A DNA stretch of 64,000 bases from Candidatus Thorarchaeota archaeon (GTDB lineage: Archaea; Asgardarchaeota; Thorarchaeia; Thorarchaeales; Thorarchaeaceae). Shown piece by piece: positions 8,990-17,198 of this stretch (position 1 is its first letter; every line of letters starts with the position of its first letter). The stretch is taken from positions 1 to 64,000 of the forward strand of contig CAVSBO010000005.1 of assembly GCA_963726195.1 (NCBI GenBank), read 5' to 3'. The notes under the pieces were generated by a model. It did no database searches and had not been told where the DNA came from. It was given only the letters and a program-made list of their open reading frames with translations. The position numbers were made by a program, and so were the translations under genes.

Positions 8990-11892
8990 ATGAGTGAGTA
9001 CGTCAAGGTTGAGAAGAAATGGCAAAAGCGTTGGGAACAAGAAAGGATTTTCGAAGCTGACCCTGACCCGAAGAAGCCGAAGTTCTTCATCACTGTTCCA
9101 TATCCTTACACCAACGGCGCTCTGCATATCGGCCACGGCAGGACCTACACTATAGGCGACCTGATAGCTAGATACAAGCGCATGCGAGGATACAATGTTC
9201 TCTTTCCAATGGCATCGCACATGACGGGCACGCCAATCGTGGGAATGGTAGAAAGGATCAAGGCAGGCGACCATGATGCGATTGAACAGTACAAGCGAGA
9301 CTTGAGGCTCTATCTTGGCACTGAGGAAGAAGTAGATGCTCAGCTAAAGAAGTTCACAGATCCATGGGTCACGGCCAAGTTCTTCGCCGACGTAATCTCT
9401 GCAGATTTCAAGGCACTCGGCTACAGCATAGACTGGCGAAGGAAGTTCACAACAGGAGACCGGATTTACAATCAGTTCGTTACATGGCAGTATCATAAGT
9501 TCATGGACAAAGGCTACATTCGCCAGGGGGCCTACCCAATTCTGTACTGCCCTCATGACGGCAATCCTGTGGGCGAGGACGACCTGCTCAAAGGCGAAGA
9601 CGCCAAGATTAAAGAATTCACTGCGATCAAGTTTGGTTTTCAGGACGGATTTCTAGTTCCCGCGACACTGCGACCCGAAACCATCTTTGGTGTCACTAAC
9701 ATGTGGATAAACCCCAGTTCGACTTATGTCTGGGCGCGTGTCGACGGCGAGAAGTGGTTGATTTCACAAGCGGCGGCCGAGAAGCTGAAGCTGCAGGCAA
9801 AGAAGGTGGAGATTCTTGAGACCTTCCCGGGGCGAAAATCATCGGCAAGAAGTTTCGTGCTGTACATGACCAGCATGAGATGCCAATTCTCCCAGCTGAC
9901 TTCGTCGATGCAGACAACGCTACTGGTGTGGTCTACTCAGTTCCTGGGCACGCACCGTTCGACTACATAGCTCTGCGAAATCTCTGGGATAACCCATCAA
10001 GTGTAGCGAGGTTCGGAATATCCGCGGACAGTATTCGGGCCATCAAGATGATTGGCATGATTGCCATCGAAGGCTACGGCGAGTTTCCAGCAAAAGACAC
10101 AGTGGAGAAACGAGACATCAAGTCACAGGCTGAAGCGGAGAATCTCGAGGAGGCAACTCAGGAGATATACAAGGCAGAATTCTACAGCGGAGTAATGAAG
10201 GACAACTGCGGTCAGTTCTCGGGTCGTGCCATCAAGGATGTCAAGGATCAGGTTGTCGCATGGATGAAGTCGAAGAAACTCTGCGACGTTTTCTACGAGC
10301 CTGACCGACGCCCTGTTGTATGCAAGTGTGGAACCAATGTTCAGGTCGGCGTTTTTGCAGGTCAATGGTTTTTAGATTACCTCAGTCCAGGTTGGAAGGA
10401 AACGGCACGCCAAGCACTCGATACGATGTCAATAATCCCTGAAACGTTTAGGAATCAATTCGAAGCGACTTTCGATTGGCTGACCCAGAGACCTTGTGCC
10501 CGTAAGAGAGGCATAGGAACCAGACTCCCATTCGACCCTGACTGGATAATCGAATCACTGTCAGACTCAACGATCTACATGGCATTCTATACAATCGCCC
10601 ACAAGATAACTGGCAACAACCTGAAACCAGAACAGCTCACCCTGGGCTTCTTCGATTATGTGTTCTTGGGCAAGGGGACTCTGAAGGATGTCTCGAAGGA
10701 GACAGGAATAGAATCTACTCTGCTCAAGTCTATGCGTGAAGAGTTCCTCTATTGGTATCCCAACGATCAACGGCACACAGCCCCATCACACATATCGAAC
10801 CATCTCAGCTTCGCCATTTTTCATCACGTAGCCATATTTCCGAAGGAGCATTGGCTCAAGTGCATCAGTCTCAATGAGCACGTGAACATGGAAGGCATGA
10901 AGATGTCCAAAAGCAAGGGGAACGTAATCCCTCTTGTTGAGATTCCCAAGAAATACGGGGCAGATGTCTATCGAACCTACGTAGTATCGGCCGCAGAGCC
11001 CGGCACGCTCATGGATTGGCGAGAGAAAGATGTGCCCACCGTGAAGAGCAAGGTGAACCAGTTCACCGAGACAGTCAGCAAGTATGCGACCAAGGTTCCT
11101 CGTGTCTATACCAAGAAGGACAAGCCCACGATGATTACCCGCTGGCTGCTATCCAAGGTGAACACCATAGCCAAATCGTCAACAGATAGTCTTGATAGCT
11201 TCAAGCTGCGTGACTATGCATTACTGGTAATGTCGGAGATGCCACGCGTCGTCTCTTACTATCTGAATCGGACAGAGGTTCCAGCTGATGAGCAGCAGTC
11301 AACTTTGGCATATGTATGTGACATATGGGTTCGTCTGGCCGCACCTCTGGCGCCCCACATCTGCGAAGAGCTGTGGTCGAAGATGAAGCGTGAAGGATAC
11401 GTTTCACTAGCACCTTGGCCTGAGCCAGATCCCAAACTTATGGATCCGGCTGTCGAAGACGCACAGGCTGTTGTGGAGTCTACGATTCGTGACGTGCGAG
11501 AGATTGCGAAGCTCATGAAGGGCAAGAAGCCGAAGAAGGTTTACATCTATGTAGCCCCGGGATGGATGTTTGACGCCATGAAGAGTATCCGCGAAGCGAA
11601 TCTTCCAATCATAGTGGGCGACATCATGAAACACTTGATGTCGAGCCCTGAGTTCAAGCAATATGGCAAGGAAGTCAAGGGAATTGTAGACCGAATTGCA
11701 AAAGAGAACGGCCTCTGGGGTCATTCCGCAACTGCAAAGGACGAGCAGGATGTATTGAGGAGTTCGGCTTCGTACATGCAGTCTGAGCTCGGCATGGAAA
11801 TAGTCGTACGCTCAGCTGAGAAACCCGAGTACGATCCTCAGAACAAGGCGCGCTTCGCTCTGCCTGGAAGGGTATCGCTCTTCCTAGAATAG
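8990..11892 (+). CDS. leuS: Leucine--tRNA ligase, archaeal/eukaryotic type (frameshift at G run 9830-9833)
   Basis: PYPYTNGALHIGH (HIGH), TLRPETIFG, KMSKSKGN, C-terminal YDPQNKARFALPGR. One extra G joins TFPG to AKIIGKK...MPILPADFVD. Confidence 0.96.
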
Positions 11893-11919
11893 GTGTAGGC
11901 AAAGAACCCGATGGGGACT

Positions 11920-11996
11920 GTGACAGGCTGGCTCTTGCGAGAGCTGTCAGACCATGCCAAAGCTTTGAGGCTTAGTCTTCATTCGTCGCCTGTCAC
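11920..11996 (-). promoter_or_regulatory. Eukaryote-like SECIS element at the 3' end of vhuU
   Basis: Minus strand: AUGAA (11982-11978), GACUAAGCC, UC-AAA-GCUUU, GGCAUGGUC, UGAC (11949-11946). This gives a tandem GA core, a 9-bp upper stem and AAA 11 nt above the core. Outer helix GUGACAGGC (11996-11988) pairs with GCCUGUCAC (11928-11920). Confidence 0.8.
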
Positions 11997-12131
11997 GAGT
12001 TCTCTTTCTGCGATTATGTGCCCTTCATCGTCCACTATAGTGAGATGAGCGGCACACGATAGTCAGCAGTCATAGCACCGCACAACCATCTCAAGAAGGT
12101 TGAGCAGTCCTTCGTCGATATCCTCTTTCAT
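11979..12131 (-). CDS. vhuU: Selenocysteine-containing [NiFeSe] hydrogenase small peptide subunit VhuU (50 aa; Sec at codon 23, TGA 12063-12065)
   Basis: GGAGG RBS then ATG. Translation MKEDIDEGLLNLLEMVVRCYDC-U-LSCAAHLTIVDDEGHIIAERELVTGDE*. It supplies the L2 motif (D-x-U-x-x-C-x-x-H) missing from the upstream large subunit. Confidence 0.92.
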
Positions 12132-12142
12132 TCGTATCCTCC

Positions 12143-13456
12143 TTAGCTAATCATTGGTTTTGGAAACTTGAGCTTCTGGTGAACTTTCTGCTCAAACACC
12201 TGTTTCGCCACTTCCATGAGGCTCTTCTCGATGCCACCGATGTTGTTGTTTGTAGCCACAATCATGTTTGCCTTTGTGATGATGCCTCGCTCGTCAGTCC
12301 AATAGTGATGTATCAGGGTGCCTCTTGGCGCTTCCACGCAACCGACACCGTCTCCCTTCTTTGGTTTAACATCTAGAAGCTTGACATCTTTGCTCACAAT
12401 CTGGGGGTCCTTAAGCAAGCCTTCGATCTCTTCAATGGCTTGGACGAGCTCGATTATCCGGGCCCAGTGGTACGCGAATGTGGCATGGACTGGGTGACCG
12501 AGCTTGTCTCTCATCTCCTGCAACGCTTGCTGAGCGAGAGGAGTAGCCATTTTGTCGACTACATTGATTCGGGCTAACGAGCCAGCCCGCCATATGCCCG
12601 CAGGATATCCTGCTGGCTTGTAATAGACATGAGTCGCGTACGAGTGATCTGGTACATACTCTGCGAAGGACTTGCGGTAGTCCTTTGACTTTACATCTTC
12701 AACGACGCCGCCCGTGGGGTCCATAATCCGAATACTACCATCGTAGATCTCGAGAGCGCCCTTGCTGTGTGTCCCGATGTAGTACGTGGGTCCGATGGCA
12801 ATCTTTGTGATGACATCTGTGTAATCATCCATGATTTTCTTTGCTAGAGAAACGGTACTTACTGTCCATTGTTTTACATCGCCAATCCGTTTCAGGAACT
12901 GGTCCCGCTTCTCCTCGGAAAAGGGATTGAGCATTCCTCCGGGCACGGCAGTGACAGGATGGATTGCAGTTCCGCCGATTGCCGCAGCAAGTTCTTGGCC
13001 GAATTGCATCATCTGCAGCGCCATCTTGCTCACGTCAGGTAGTGCCTTGGTTATGGCAACTAAGTTTCTTTTTGCAGGATCTCCAAAGGGTCCGGCCAAG
13101 AAATCAGGAGCGGCCAGAGCGAAGAAGTGAAGCGAATGACTACTGAACTGCTTCGCGTTAATCAGAAGTCTTCTCAGTTTCACAGCTGGCGCTGGAGGAG
13201 TCACATCCCAAGCTGCCTCAACTGCCTTCACTGCGGCTAGATGGTGAGGTTCGGGACAGATACCGCAGATTCTTGATGCGAGCTTCGGGGCCTCCTCAGC
13301 GAATCTTCCTTCAAGGAATTTCTCGAAGAACCGCGTGGAGGTGACATTGAACTGTGCGTCCTTGACCTTCCCATCCTTTCCAATCTTGATTGTTATGTCG
13401 CCATGACCCTCAAGCCTAGTGACAGGCTCAATCTTGACTATCTTCTCCCCCGTCAC
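12143..13456 (-). CDS. vhuA: F420-non-reducing [NiFe(Se)] hydrogenase large subunit (group 3c), split form lacking the C-terminal L2 motif
   Basis: IEPVTRLEGHG, L1 motif RICGICPEPHH, VEAPRGTLIHHY; ends without DPCxxC. Confidence 0.93.
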   Translation of the reverse strand: MTGEKIVKIEPVTRLEGHGDITIKIGKDGKVKDAQFNVTSTRFFEKFLEGRFAEEAPKLASRICGICPEPHHLAAVKAVEAAWDVTPPAPAVKLRRLLINAKQFSSHSLHFFALAAPDFLAGPFGDPAKRNLVAITKALPDVSKMALQMMQFGQELAAAIGGTAIHPVTAVPGGMLNPFSEEKRDQFLKRIGDVKQWTVSTVSLAKKIMDDYTDVITKIAIGPTYYIGTHSKGALEIYDGSIRIMDPTGGVVEDVKSKDYRKSFAEYVPDHSYATHVYYKPAGYPAGIWRAGSLARINVVDKMATPLAQQALQEMRDKLGHPVHATFAYHWARIIELVQAIEEIEGLLKDPQIVSKDVKLLDVKPKKGDGVGCVEAPRGTLIHHYWTDERGIITKANMIVATNNNIGGIEKSLMEVAKQVFEQKVHQKLKFPKPMIS

Positions 13457-14364
13457 TTCTTCTTGCTCCTTGCCTTGTCACGCATCCTAGAGAGATAGGA
13501 CGCCGCGTAGTCTGTGAAGTAGAATGAGCCGATAGGATCCGGGAAGGATTCCGTAAGCTGCTCTGGTTCCATTTCGGCTATTGCACCTAGGGCTGATATG
13601 ATCTTAGCACCATGGTCCTTGACCCTAGTGACCGGGCCAAAGCATCCCTTGCACGGCGAATTCACGGTCGGACAGATGGCTCCACAGAATCCAATGGTTG
13701 CGAATCCAAGACAAAGGTATCCTTGGTCCAACAGGCACTTGCTCGGATCGATTTTGCCTTCGTAGCTCCTGTGGAACTTCGAAACATGCTTGTCTTGCTT
13801 CACTTTTGGGCACTGGTCGCATACGCTCTTTTCAGGAAGGTCGAAGGGCTTCCCGGAAAGGATTGCAGACAGTGCCTCGACGATATTCTTGCTTGTCGGC
13901 GGGCAACCTGGCAGCATAATGTTGAACTGAACCACATCGACGTTCGGCCGCACATGCGACACAAAAGCGGGCACGTTTTCTGAAGGCACCCGGGGGTCGG
14001 TCACTGTATCTGCTTTCATGAATTTCCTGTCAACCAACTCGTCAAGCTCCCATTGGTTGGCAAGACCATGTATGCCACCGTAGCAGGAACAGACTCCCCA
14101 CGCAACCAAGATTTTACTCTTGGCTCTCATAATGTTGAGCAAGCGCACGTCATCTTCTGTCCTGCAGCTTCCTTCGACAAGACCGATGTGTATTGACTCG
14201 TCAGGCATTGATTCGAGGTCCTTAATCTTGAAGTCGACGACCGCAGGCCAAAACACTATCTCTAGTTCGGGCAGCAGCTCGAGAAGGCCCAGATGCAAAT
14301 CCAAGAGAGACTGATCGCATCCCCAACAGGAGGTCAGCTGGGCCATGGCAATGCGCTTGGTCAT
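13453..14364 (-). CDS. vhuG: F420-non-reducing hydrogenase small (Fe-S) subunit
   Basis: SCWGCD, VEGSC, GVCSCYGGI, PGCPP, CDQC, CLLDQGYLCLG, PCKGCFGP. Confidence 0.93.
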   Translation of the reverse strand: MTKRIAMAQLTSCWGCDQSLLDLHLGLLELLPELEIVFWPAVVDFKIKDLESMPDESIHIGLVEGSCRTEDDVRLLNIMRAKSKILVAWGVCSCYGGIHGLANQWELDELVDRKFMKADTVTDPRVPSENVPAFVSHVRPNVDVVQFNIMLPGCPPTSKNIVEALSAILSGKPFDLPEKSVCDQCPKVKQDKHVSKFHRSYEGKIDPSKCLLDQGYLCLGFATIGFCGAICPTVNSPCKGCFGPVTRVKDHGAKIISALGAIAEMEPEQLTESFPDPIGSFYFTDYAASYLSRMRDKARSKKK

Positions 14365-14370
14365 GTTCTG

Positions 14371-14847
14371 TTAGTCCTTCCTTGCGGGGTTTGGTCCCAG
14401 TTCCTTGATGCGCTCGACCATCGACGTGACGCCCTCAGTGAAGACATCGCCTTCCGCGGCACTCGCCCACTGCAGATGAATCCTGTCCGGTTCGACGCCT
14501 GCTTCTTCTAGCGTCTTCTGAAGAAGGGCGAAGCGCGACTTCATCTTCAGATTGCCGCTCGTGTAGTGACAATCGCCGGGGTGACAGCCAGAAATCAACA
14601 CTCCATCCGCGCCTTGGCTAAGAGCGTCTAAGATGAACCCGGGATCCACGCGGCCTGTGCAATTGACTCGGATGATGCGCACGTTCGGAGGCATTTGCCT
14701 TCTGCTGGTGCCTGCGAGGTCTGCACCTGCGTATGAGCACCAGTTGCAGCAGAAAGCCAGGATCCGTGGTTCGAAGTCACTCTCTCCTCGAGATTTCTGC
14801 CTCTGACTGCTGGTCGCCTTGTGACCGGCTGCCGTCAATCTGTTCAT
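14371..14847 (-). CDS. mvhD: Hydrogenase iron-sulfur subunit MvhD/VhuD (Cys form); start uncertain
   Basis: FEPRILAFCCNWCSYAGAD, RVNCTGRVD, GADGVLISGCHPGDCHY. The homologous part begins near 14783. Confidence 0.92.
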   Translation of the reverse strand: MNRLTAAGHKATSSQRQKSRGESDFEPRILAFCCNWCSYAGADLAGTSRRQMPPNVRIIRVNCTGRVDPGFILDALSQGADGVLISGCHPGDCHYTSGNLKMKSRFALLQKTLEEAGVEPDRIHLQWASAAEGDVFTEGVTSMVERIKELGPNPARKD

Positions 14848-15034
14848 GACCCCCGTGGGCAACGAAGCCCGGAGTCTCTGTAATCTAATTAAGATTCCTG
14901 ATTTCAGAAGCGCTCCTGTGCACCGAGTGTCGTTCTCCACTCGTGTGCCATCCCGGCCGGAGGCTTCAAGACAGCTGCTTTTATTATCGGAATTGCTCTC
15001 GTCTTTCTTGGCTCTGTGAGACTCTGGGTGTGTG

Positions 15035-15277
15035 ATGGCAGTGGTGCTTGCGTTCATCATGGCGAAAGTCGAGTCTTCTAAATCACGTGAGGTTCTGAAT
15101 CGTGTGAAGAAGCTAGAAGGGGTTCAGGAAGCCTACATCATCTATGGAGCTTACAACCTACTCCTGAAAGCATTATTCAAGACACCTGAGGCTCTGAGTT
15201 CTTTTGTTGTGGACACCCTGAGAAAGATTGACGGAATTCGCGATACTGTTACGAATGTCTGTGCTACTTGCGACTAG
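15035..15277 (+). CDS. Lrp/AsnC ligand-binding (RAM) domain protein
   Basis: ~80 aa, GVQEAYIIYGAYNLLLK...LRKIDGIRDTVT pattern. Confidence 0.85.
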   Translation: MAVVLAFIMAKVESSKSREVLNRVKKLEGVQEAYIIYGAYNLLLKALFKTPEALSSFVVDTLRKIDGIRDTVTNVCATCD

Positions 15278-15310
15278 GAAGAACAACATAGGGCATGTTT
15301 ACGGCTTTTC

Positions 15311-17198
15311 TCACCGCCGTGCCAGAACACTGCCTTCTCGTTCAAGGGCGAGTCTCTTCAAGGTGCCTTTTGTTGGCAGTCCGCTCTTCAAATCCCATCC
15401 CCTGTGAGAATAGTACTCATTCAACATCAAGTCCAACTCGACAACCTGACCCTTCGAAGGACCTGTCGGGGCCTCTTCCTTTACCAACCTGTCAGGAAGA
15501 ACATCGTCATCCCGCGTGATTCCAAATCTGGCATTGAACAGACGATTCAGGTTGACAATTCGTTCTCCGATTGTCTTGAGTTCCTTTACCGTGAAGTTCA
15601 GTCCATTGTGAATCCTCAAGGCTAGGGCCACATCATCATAGTAGAACTCCGGGGGAATCTGTGTACCATATTTGCATAGGCCGACACTCTCCACGACGAC
15701 CATGTAATCCTCGCACTCTTTGACCATTATGCCCTTGTAAGTTGGATTCAGTCTGTCTGCCATCTGAGGTAGGTATTTGTCACCAAAGCGTTTTCTTATC
15801 TCGTCATCGAAGCCGACCTCATCAAGAACTGGAAATGAATAGAGATGGTCAGCCCCTCTTGCCGCCGTGACAGCGGCGAGCCCCATTGATTTCTGGGCTC
15901 GCGGTTCCTGTCCTGCGATTTCCTGTTTCTTCACAGCCATGACGAACTTTTCACTCCCACGCCCTGTTTTCTGAGCGGCCCCAAAGCTTCCTTCAGCGAG
16001 CCTGTCTCCGAATCCCTTCCTGAAAGCAATCATCTCAGTAAGCTTCACTATTGACTCATGATTACCCCAGCTGAGGTCTATCCCTCCAGTGTCCTTGGCC
16101 GTGAGGATTCCCTTCTCCCAAGCCTCCATGGCCCAAGCGATGGTGCCCCCGAGCGATATTGTATCAATTCCATACTTGTTTGCGAGATGATGGCTGTAGA
16201 GAATTGATTCTATGTTATCATTGCCGCAGCGTGACCCTAATGCCGCCAGACTCTCAAACTCTGGGGATCCACCTGTGTATGCATACGGGCCATCCGATAC
16301 CGACGTGAAGCGACCGCATCTTTGAAGGCAACTCCAATCTGCCCTGGGCTTGATGAGGTATCCTCGGTTGATGGCATGACCGCCTATCTTCTCGTAGCCA
16401 TCGAACACGCCTTGCTGCATGTTGTAGGTGGGCAGACGTCCGATATGCTGCATCAATTCGATCAGACTTGTCGTACCAAACTCGGCGCGGCCGCTCGTGA
16501 AGGGATTAGCAAGCATTCTCTTGTACAACTCGTCCATGTGTTTGAGGTAGTTTACAGGATCAGCAACATCGAGCTTTCCGGTGCCCCGTACACAAATGGC
16601 CTTGAGTTTCTTGAAACCCATCACTGCACCGAGACCTGAACGAGCAGAGGCCCGGTCTCTGTCGTTCATTATAGCGGCAAAGCGAACAAGATTCTCGCCT
16701 GCTTGACCGATGGAAAGGACCCTTGATCTGCCTGCCGTGTTTGGTTCTCAGAATCCCATCGGTCTCAAAGACGTCCTTGTCCCAAATCCCAGTAGCATCT
16801 AGTAGCTCTACCTTTGAGTCCTCAATGTGAAGATATACGGGTCTGTCCGAAGCCCCTGTGAAGATCATTGCATCGTAACCTGCGAATTTGAGCTCAGGAC
16901 CCCAGAAACCGGCAGCATGGCTTTCGCCCCATATCCCCGTAAGTGGAGATAGAGCGGCTATCACATGCCTCGAAGATTGAGGGAACATCGAGCCCGTGAG
17001 CAATCCAGTTGCAAAGCCCAAGACATTCTCGGCGGACAGTGGTTCAGTGCCTTCCGGAATCCCATCGAAGAGCATCTTTGATAGGAATCCGGCCCCTAGC
17101 AGGTACTTGCGAATCATATTCTCGTCTAGTGGTTTCTTTTCGATTGCCCCACTTGTCAGGTCGATGTGAAGCGTCTGGCCGCCTACGCCCTTTATCAC
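15311..17198 (-). CDS. Aldehyde:ferredoxin oxidoreductase (tungsten AOR) family protein 1 (frameshift at 16720-16722)
   Basis: SPLTGIWGESHAAG, GQAGENLVRFA, ARSGLGAVMG.KKLKAI, GSPEFES, DTISLG, RGADH, LNEYYSHRGWD. Removing one G joins the two ORFs. Confidence 0.92.

Follow-up and report, generated by a model that had tools for sequence, protein, structure and literature searches.

Introduction

A SECIS element that overlaps the coding sequence has been described for VhuU.1 of Lokiarchaeota, in which the AUGA motif of the RNA supplies the stop UGA of the gene (Mariotti et al. 2016, PMC4989117). The same study argued from proximity and structural constraint that a UGA so near the element is not recoded, and SBP2 was reported to be absent from Archaea (PMC4989117). 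An Asgard type I model was described by Huang et al. 2024 (PMC11227280), with a GA_[G/A]A core, a stem of 7-15 bp with at most two mismatches, a loop of 8-20 nt without a ministem, a position from -30 to +600 nt of the 3' end of the gene, and an in-frame UGA aligned to Cys. According to that study, UGA stops often overlap the AUGA motif in Lokiarchaeia, and SECISearch3 fails on Asgard elements (PMC11227280).

Herein, an element at the 3' end of a thorarchaeal vhuU gene was analyzed. The window is the whole stretch of DNA that was analyzed, 64,000 nucleotides of contig CAVSBO010000005.1 (assembly GCA_963726195.1). The SECIS type, the stop overlap and the distance argument have all been published, so the window adds no new principle, and the feature is a thorarchaeal member of an already known kind. 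An earlier note on this DNA had presented the overlap of the stop codon with the SECIS core as unusual; the overlap is not new, having already been published for VhuU.1 of Lokiarchaeota (PMC4989117) and described as frequent in Lokiarchaeia (PMC11227280). Three things are added here. The first is the breadth of the overlap, in vhuU across Asgard and in selD of Thorarchaeota. The second is that the base before the stop is set by the RNA rather than by the protein. The third is a conserved second hairpin, which is to be included in the design of reporters, binding assays and search models.

Results and discussion

The vhuU gene, its operon and its genome

The vhuU ORF lies on the minus strand of the window and has 50 codons and a stop (Table 1). 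Its translation is MKEDIDEGLLNLLEMVVRCYDC-U-LSCAAHLTIVDDEGHIIAERELVTGDE-stop, which reads as ...RCYDCULSCAAH...VTGDE*. The two UGAs of this gene are 84 nt apart and carry the opposite meanings that the earlier note had given them, Sec at 12065-12063 and stop at 11981-11979. The genes on the minus strand follow the order mvhD/vhuD-like, vhuG, vhuA, and then vhuU. The C-terminal metal-binding (nickel-ligand) motif is missing from VhuA. In the split Vhu hydrogenases of methanococci, a small ORF likewise carries the nickel-ligand motif that is missing from VhuA. The convergent LeuRS gene ends at 11892, 25 nt beyond the lower helix, and the SECIS element takes up the 87 nt that separate vhuU from LeuRS.

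The assembly has a size of 2.92 Mb in 19 contigs with 51% GC. The Sec machinery was found in this Thorarchaeota MAG as a tRNA-Sec, an adjoining SepSecS, and a SelD with one in-frame UGA (Sec). The closest relatives of VhuA are in Thorarchaeota MAGs, with 91% identity in OWC5 and 82-83% in OWC3 and another MAG. A few residues differ between the VhuU of OWC5 (GCA_003345555) and that of the window, and the VhuU of OWC5, which belongs to the same genus, is catalogued among the selenoproteins in the supplement of Huang et al. 2024 (PMC11227280).

Some irregularities were noticed around the operon. The mvhD/vhuD-like protein (14371-15060, minus strand) matches the FlpD domain only at residues 100-222 and has no Sec codon. 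Its N-terminus of about 100 residues is of low complexity and rich in Ser, Thr and Arg; it is either an unusual extension or a sign that translation truly starts further downstream. A Sec-type VhuD (FlpD family) was also searched for, to see whether the second hairpin extends to the SECIS elements of hdrA/vhuD, and an in-frame stop was present in none of the 6 copies here and in none of the matches listed in 61 genomes of the phylum. The leucyl-tRNA synthetase gene (8990-11892, plus strand) is broken into overlapping ORFs at 8990-9970 and 9880-11892, and the aldehyde:ferredoxin oxidoreductase gene (15299-17198, minus strand) is likewise split, into 16506-17198 and 15299-16798. Together with a broken paralogous vhuA elsewhere in the genome, these splits suggest assembly indel errors and not real pseudogenes.

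Architecture of the element

The element spans 12000-11917 on the minus strand, from the 3' end of vhuU onward. Positions 11920 and 11996 are the outer ends of a 9-bp lower helix, in which GUGACAGGC (11996-11988) pairs with GCCUGUCAC (11928-11920), and three further pairs between ACU (12000-11998) and AGU (11919-11917) lengthen this helix. The G-A of the 3' core are presumed to be the sheared partners of the G and the A of AUGA. The unconstrained MFE fold is the three-helix structure listed in Table 1, with -33.9 kcal/mol and z = -3.46, and one of 200 shuffles was as good. The sequence, the span of 11920-11996, the 9-bp lower helix and the extra hairpin described in the earlier note are all present on the minus strand and in this fold.

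Table 1 Features of the vhuU operon and of the SECIS element in the window.
Feature	Position	Strand	Remark	Basis
mvhD/vhuD-like gene	14371-15060	-	Same operon	Pfam FlpD among operon matches
vhuG	13453-14364	-	Same operon	Pfam Oxidored_q6 among operon matches
vhuA, [NiFe(Se)] hydrogenase large subunit	12143..13456	-	Same operon, upstream of vhuU	Pfam NiFeSe_Hases
vhuU	11979..12131	-	C-terminal D-C-U-x-x-C-x-x-H nickel-ligand motif supplied by VhuU	Translation
Sec UGA, in frame, codon 23 of vhuU	12063..12065	-		Sequence, translation
Lower helix 5' strand, ACU.GUGACAGGC	11988..12000	-	vhuU codons 44-48	MFE fold
AUGA core	11979..11982	-	Last base of Glu50 codon and stop UGA (11981-11979)	Sequence
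Upper helix (helix II) 5' strand, A-GACUAAGCC	11969..11978	-		MFE fold, covariation
Apical loop, UCAAAGCUUU	11959..11968	-	Carries conserved unpaired AA(A)	Two A columns invariant in 42 sequences
Upper helix 3' strand, GGCAUGGUC-U	11949..11958	-		MFE fold, covariation
3' core GAC	11946..11948	-	G-A, then invariant C	Thorarchaeota alignment
Second hairpin, GCUCU-CGCA-AGAGC	11931..11944	-	3' (non-bulged) strand; makes a three-way junction	MFE fold
Lower helix 3' strand, GCCUGUCAC-AGU	11917..11928	-		MFE fold, covariation

Comparison with known SECIS classes

From its sequence, the element is predicted with high confidence to be a functional SECIS of vhuU, of the Asgard 'eukaryote-like' type I class. 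The element agrees with the Asgard model of Huang et al. 2024 in every stated feature, with AUGA at 11982-11979 and GA at 11948-11947 as the core. The stem has 10 positions with one A.A mismatch, and the loop has 10 nt. The element overlaps the last codons of vhuU, and the Sec position of VhuU aligns with Cys in a Cys-type homologue (L011) and in DPCxxC homologues. The lower stem also shares [U/C]GG_CC[A/G]-like pairs of the frhA type reported by Huang, Xiao and Zhang 2024 (PMC11227280).

The lokiSECIS of VhuU.1 (PMC4989117) and the window element have in common the gene family, an AUGA directly before a stem of about 9 bp, an A-containing loop, and a purine-A after the stem. The 9-bp stem and 11-nt loop of the lokiSECIS are not found in the window, where 30 nt rather than 29 (9 + 11 + 9) separate AUGA from GA. 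These 30 nt read as 9 bp + 12 nt or as 10 bp + 10 nt, and the Loki-type sequences in our sample do show 9 + 11. In the 9-bp register, the window loop is CUCAAAGCUUUG, with AAA at positions 4-6 and a G at the end, preceded by U rather than A; the loop of the lokiSECIS opens with five A-rich nucleotides and closes with a G (PMC4989117). The apical loop of the window is UCAAA..., compared with AAAAA in the lokiSECIS, and the window element is GC-rich. The published peculiarity of Loki VhuU, AA instead of GA after the stem (PMC4989117), was reproduced in our sample: Loki-type vhuU has AAC at the 3' core position where Thorarchaeota have GAC.

The AUGA...AA...GA pattern, the kink-turn-like quartet and the logic of helix I, internal loop and helix II are shared with eukaryotic type I SECIS (Rfam RF00031), and both would act at a distance on an upstream UGA. 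However, helix II is shorter in the window, a third helix stands in the place of the internal loop, and the element is located at or inside the end of the ORF, whereas eukaryotic SECIS are far out in the 3' UTR. The eukaryotic likeness named in the earlier note was not picked up by covariance models: an Rfam scan of 11500-12500 gave no SECIS family at E <= 10 and only weak C/D snoRNA noise.

Similarly, the element was compared with the euryarchaeal SECIS of Methanococcus and Methanopyrus. Both lie 3' of the coding region of an orthologous vhuU/fruA-type gene, and the distance from the UGA to the SECIS is similar to the 88 nt of M. maripaludis fruA. The predicted and conserved structure of the window element has, however, neither a GAA_A bulge between two stems nor an S-S-S upper stem. 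The reading of the earlier note, an Asgard eukaryote-like element of the AUGA_GA kink-turn type and not of the methanococcal GAA_A type, is borne out by its conservation and covariation in orthologues and paralogues.

Conservation and covariation of the fold

The sample was drawn from the vhuA loci of 40 related genomes and 80 further public contigs, in which the gene downstream of vhuA was examined. The 64 distinct Sec-type vhuU 3' ends cover Thorarchaeota (two paralogous groups), Lokiarchaeia/Promethearchaeia, Helarchaeota, Atabeyarchaeia, Borrarchaeum and LC30. The AUGA, the two loop adenines and the 3' GAC were invariant in the alignment of 42 distinct Thorarchaeota sequences. The three-helix structure that was tested in Thorarchaeota was derived from single-sequence folds. 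In this alignment, 88.3% of the cells were paired, compared with 38-51% when the partners were slid, and changes on both sides were found in 20 of 32 pairs, counts that overstate independence because the compared sequences are related. None of 500 shuffles reached the observed values. The covarying pairs are distributed as 8 of 9 in helix II, 11 of 19 in the lower helix and 1 of 4 in the second hairpin. As the earlier note had it, the lower helix is built from coding sequence, namely codons 44-48 of vhuU.

A covariance model was built from the Thorarchaeota alignment, and 64 elements were aligned with it, including those of Loki, Helarchaeota, Atabeyarchaeia and LC30. In this wider Asgard alignment, which is fitted to the model structure and positions the lower helix of Loki sequences poorly, compensatory changes were found in all 32 pairs and 89.7% of the cells were paired. 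Helix II (9/9 pairs) and the second hairpin (4/4 pairs) covary throughout in this model-fitted alignment. In the single-sequence MFE folds of 61 sequences, helix II was formed in 58 and the second hairpin in 51. Alignment of the vhuU 3' ends across Asgard, the check named in the earlier note, gave both covariation and conservation of the overlap.

A Cys-type vhuU served as a natural negative control. This gene (L011; G015 contig C63, downstream of vhuA) encodes CYDCCLSC and has CUUGA in place of AUGA, and it gave no covariance-model match and no comparable fold. Its UGA stop is retained at the same codon position although AUGA and the SECIS fold are lost.

These data bear on the view that the structure, placed between convergent genes, serves above all as a hairpin for the 3' end, the termination or the stability of the transcript. 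The element does occupy the gap between vhuU and LeuRS, and pyrimidine- or U-rich tracts follow it in many orthologues. However, the AUGA, AA and GA are invariant, the element is missing from Cys-type vhuU, the same core recurs after selD, and the element matches a published SECIS class. Such a main role is highly improbable, and the element is read as a SECIS in what follows.

The bare pattern of AUGA, stem, AA and GA gave 79 matches in the 2.9-Mb genome, mostly irrelevant. The pattern is unspecific alone, and it is the conservation that settles the reality of the element. A stricter descriptor with a GC-loop hairpin was also tried; it gave 30 genome matches, of which only the two vhuU elements were credible, and it missed selD. 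No further selenoprotein genes were found by this descriptor scan of the genome.

The stop/core overlap across Asgard

The identity of the stop codon with the UGA of the SECIS core, as claimed for the window in the earlier note, is general in the sample: 62 of the 64 distinct Sec-type vhuU end in NNA-UGA. The last codon among these 62 is GGA in 55, GAA in 5, GCA in 1 and GUA in 1. The last amino acid varies (G/E/A/V) and the third base is always A, which shows that this base is dictated by the RNA and not by the protein. As background, A-UGA ends 11.6% of the long ORFs in this genome. Among the 64 distinct sequences, the stop follows the Sec UGA with a spacing of 84 nt in 52, of 96 nt in 11, and of 39 nt in a single one. 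On the sequences compared, the overlap is ancient and almost universal in Asgard vhuU, and it is found too in thorarchaeal selD.

Two sequences keep the SECIS with an earlier stop. In the Loki-like L024 (L024:2880-3042), the one with the spacing of 39 nt, a premature in-frame UAA follows the Sec codon, and the former codons and the AUGA SECIS are kept. L023 (L023:1221-1329) ends at UAA, with the AUGA 20 nt after the stop, and the same three-way SECIS starts a few nt past this UAA. Since both keep the SECIS despite an earlier UAA, the stop/core overlap is dispensable, and its adaptive value is unproven.

The terminal UGA could in principle also be decoded as Sec, which would give a longer protein, and in the window the frame is open for 48 more codons after the vhuU stop. 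But the distance to the next in-frame stop ranges from 4 to 100 codons over 63 sequences and is not conserved, and the sequence downstream of the stop evolves as paired RNA and not as codons. The lack of a pattern in these open frames excludes read-through into a conserved extension, and decoding of the terminal UGA as Sec is extremely improbable. The terminal UGA is read here as a stop.

The SECIS of selD in Thorarchaeia

The selD gene of this genome (L120:2490-2600, at the selD 3' end on G000 contig C7) was compared with its relatives (L129-L143 and L146). In all 17 Thorarchaeota genomes examined, this one and 16 family members, the stop UGA of selD lies inside a [G/A/C]UGA SECIS core, and the ORF ends in ...E-T-E/D-F-P-UGA. 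After the core come a type II arm, UGAGGA, and a GC-rich hairpin, GCCGY-CGNRA-RCGGC, whose loop is CGCAA, CGCGA or CGUGA. The CGGUCUC behind this hairpin pairs with the codons GAG ACC G to form the lower helix, which encloses the whole. In the alignment of the 17 sequences, 89.8% of the cells were paired and 15 of 23 pairs covary. The selD core resembles a canonical k-turn, with a C-stem UUCC/GGAA, a bulge C-R-U, and then tandem G.A.

The second hairpin and a competing pairing

The second hairpin is kept in all lineages examined, and its stem is 95-96% paired. Its sequence is CCC(C/U)-GCAA-GGG in Thorarchaeota, GGCG-UGCAA-CGCC in Atabeyarchaeia, GCUC-UGCAA-GAGC in LC30, and CCCC-UGCCC-GGGG or CCU-AGCAA-GG in Loki, with a loop consensus of Y-G-C-A-A in vhuU. 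The hairpin has 4-5 bp and a loop of the Y-G-C-A-A or C-G-N-G-A kind, and its place is directly below the kink-turn core, on the non-bulged strand. The vhuU genes of at least five Asgard lineages carry it, as do the selD genes of Thorarchaeia, and in both genes the stop lies inside the core.

The main text of Huang et al. 2024 (PMC11227280) limits the Asgard model to the core, the upper stem and the loop, and the text of Mariotti et al. 2016 (PMC4989117) describes neither the lower helix nor the second hairpin. Likewise, no hairpin, tetraloop or junction of this kind is mentioned in the main texts of these two papers and of a 2026 review; this applies to main texts and text supplements, and the hairpin could still appear in the supplementary figures of Huang et al. 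2024. A full-text literature search for 'SECIS' with 'three-way junction' gave nothing relevant.

It is tentatively proposed that Asgard SECIS are three-way junctions and not simple two-helix eukaryote-like hairpins. The second hairpin probably helps the folding of the core or serves as a recognition determinant. If it is a determinant of folding or recognition, by way of a k-junction-like core or a second protein contact, the present archaeal SECIS models and search tools would omit an essential part, and the step from archaeal to eukaryotic SECIS would include the loss of this helix.

By definition, a k-junction is a k-turn whose non-bulged strand carries a third helix (Wang et al. 2014; Li et al. 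2023, PMC10573300). The Asgard elements share with it a tandem G.A-type core and a third helix on the non-bulged strand, which together make a three-way junction. A k-junction topology is therefore suggestive, as a resemblance in secondary structure only. The vhuU elements differ from k-junctions by 5-7 unpaired nt on the 5' strand in place of a clean 3-nt bulge, and the selD elements by the 3-4-bp C-stem that separates the k-turn from the junction.

A different pairing competes with the second hairpin. The G-rich 5' strand of the internal loop ahead of AUGA, GGCGGCGG (GGCGACGA in the window), could pair with the 5' half of the hairpin, CCCCGC (CUCUCGC in the window). The SECIS would then be real without a three-way junction, either as a plain two-helix eukaryote-like SECIS or as interchanging conformers. 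RNAalifold on a plain MAFFT alignment (A1) recovered helix II and preferred this pairing for the junction. The pairing is 97% paired in Thorarchaeota, yet nearly all of its pairs are invariant G-C and carry little information. Two G-to-A changes shared by the window and its closest relative (L001, L002) are answered by two C-to-U changes on the partner side; however, two of the six pairs are broken in the paralogue of the same genome (L111) and in L003 and L004 of the same genus. The pairing is unavailable in Loki, Helarchaeota, Atabeyarchaeia and Borrarchaeum, where the hairpin is kept with different sequences. The full three-way junction, and not the alternative, was formed in 50 of the 61 single-sequence folds, and in selD 4 of the 5 pairs of the equivalent hairpin covary. 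It is unlikely that the G-rich strand replaces the hairpin, and its pairing is possibly a minor alternative or a second conformer of the three-way structure.

The changes in the window concern positions 11984-11990 and 11939-11944. The Gly-Gly codons before the stop are now Asp-Glu (GGC GAC GAA), also in the closest relative. To these two G-to-A changes correspond two C-to-U changes on the 5' side of the second hairpin, for which there are matching G-to-A changes on its 3' side. Such a threefold match could mean that both alternative pairings are in use.

Proposed mechanism of Sec insertion and termination

With a ribosome paused at the Sec UGA (12065-12063), the structure would have its base about 57-66 nt downstream, well outside the ribosome, and would still be folded. 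The folded element would present a kink-turn-like core, with the AUGA 5' strand, the GA 3' strand, and the unpaired AA in the apical loop. A Sec-specific elongation factor and a putative archaeal SECIS-binding partner, as expected for the family, would deliver Sec-tRNASec. The 5' strand of the lower helix consists of about the last five codons of vhuU, and a ribosome with the stop UGA in its A site would have unwound this helix. The core and the 5' strand of helix II would be held in the mRNA channel; no SECIS would exist at that moment, and a release factor would read the UGA. The earlier note had proposed that unwinding at the stop prevents recoding, and this is a reasonable inference, the same argument as that of Mariotti et al. 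2016 (PMC4989117). One consequence would be that a trailing ribosome has to wait for termination by the leading one and for refolding of the RNA before it can decode Sec.

The overlap itself may be kept mainly because the same nucleotides have to satisfy both the RNA structure and a C-terminal tail that is removed by a protease. During [NiFe] hydrogenase maturation, an endopeptidase removes the tail after His. Since the tail of VhuU would be cleaved off, its codons are free to serve the RNA.

The overlap may also have no selected role in the discrimination between Sec and stop and be a by-product of a compact 3' end. The frame would then run to the first in-frame stop, which is the UGA of AUGA, and a UGA so near the SECIS would be unreachable anyway. 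L023 and L024, in which UAA is upstream and the SECIS is intact, fit this explanation, and the exact end of VhuU matters little to the protein because the endopeptidase removes what follows His. The idea of a minimal distance was already put forward by Mariotti et al. 2016 (PMC4989117). However, the overlap has been retained in 62 of 64 distinct vhuU sequences, from at least five Asgard lineages, and in 17 of 17 thorarchaeal selD genes, a persistence beyond that expected of a neutral accident. The dual constraint of RNA and protein could explain this persistence without selection for discrimination. The by-product explanation is a serious possibility, though held at somewhat below even confidence.

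Further copies of vhuU and of its SECIS

A second vhuU is present in the genome (G000 contig C3:109278-109390; L111:1501-1613), reading MTDEIPEGVLN...CYDCULSCAAH...VTCEE-UGA. It has its own AUGA-stop SECIS, and the covariance-model score of this element is above that of the window copy. The vhuA upstream of it is split across two frames, with in-frame TGA/TAA.

A degenerate or partial copy of the vhuU tail and SECIS was found about 0.8-1.1 kb downstream of this paralogous vhuU (G000 contig C3:110368-110480; L111:2591-2703), and similar remnants are present in L063:3518-3633 and L066:3526-3630. Between the paralogous vhuU and the remnant lies a gene for a 199-aa DUF6036/AbiEii-like nucleotidyltransferase. 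The remnant looks like a target duplicated by an insertion. In L066, the stop of the inserted gene is the UGA of the remnant AUGA.

Two public contigs with the titles 'Nanopelagicaceae bacterium' and 'Odinarchaeota' (L097 and L106) carry Loki-type vhuA and vhuU with a Loki-type SECIS; they are probably mis-binned or mislabelled.
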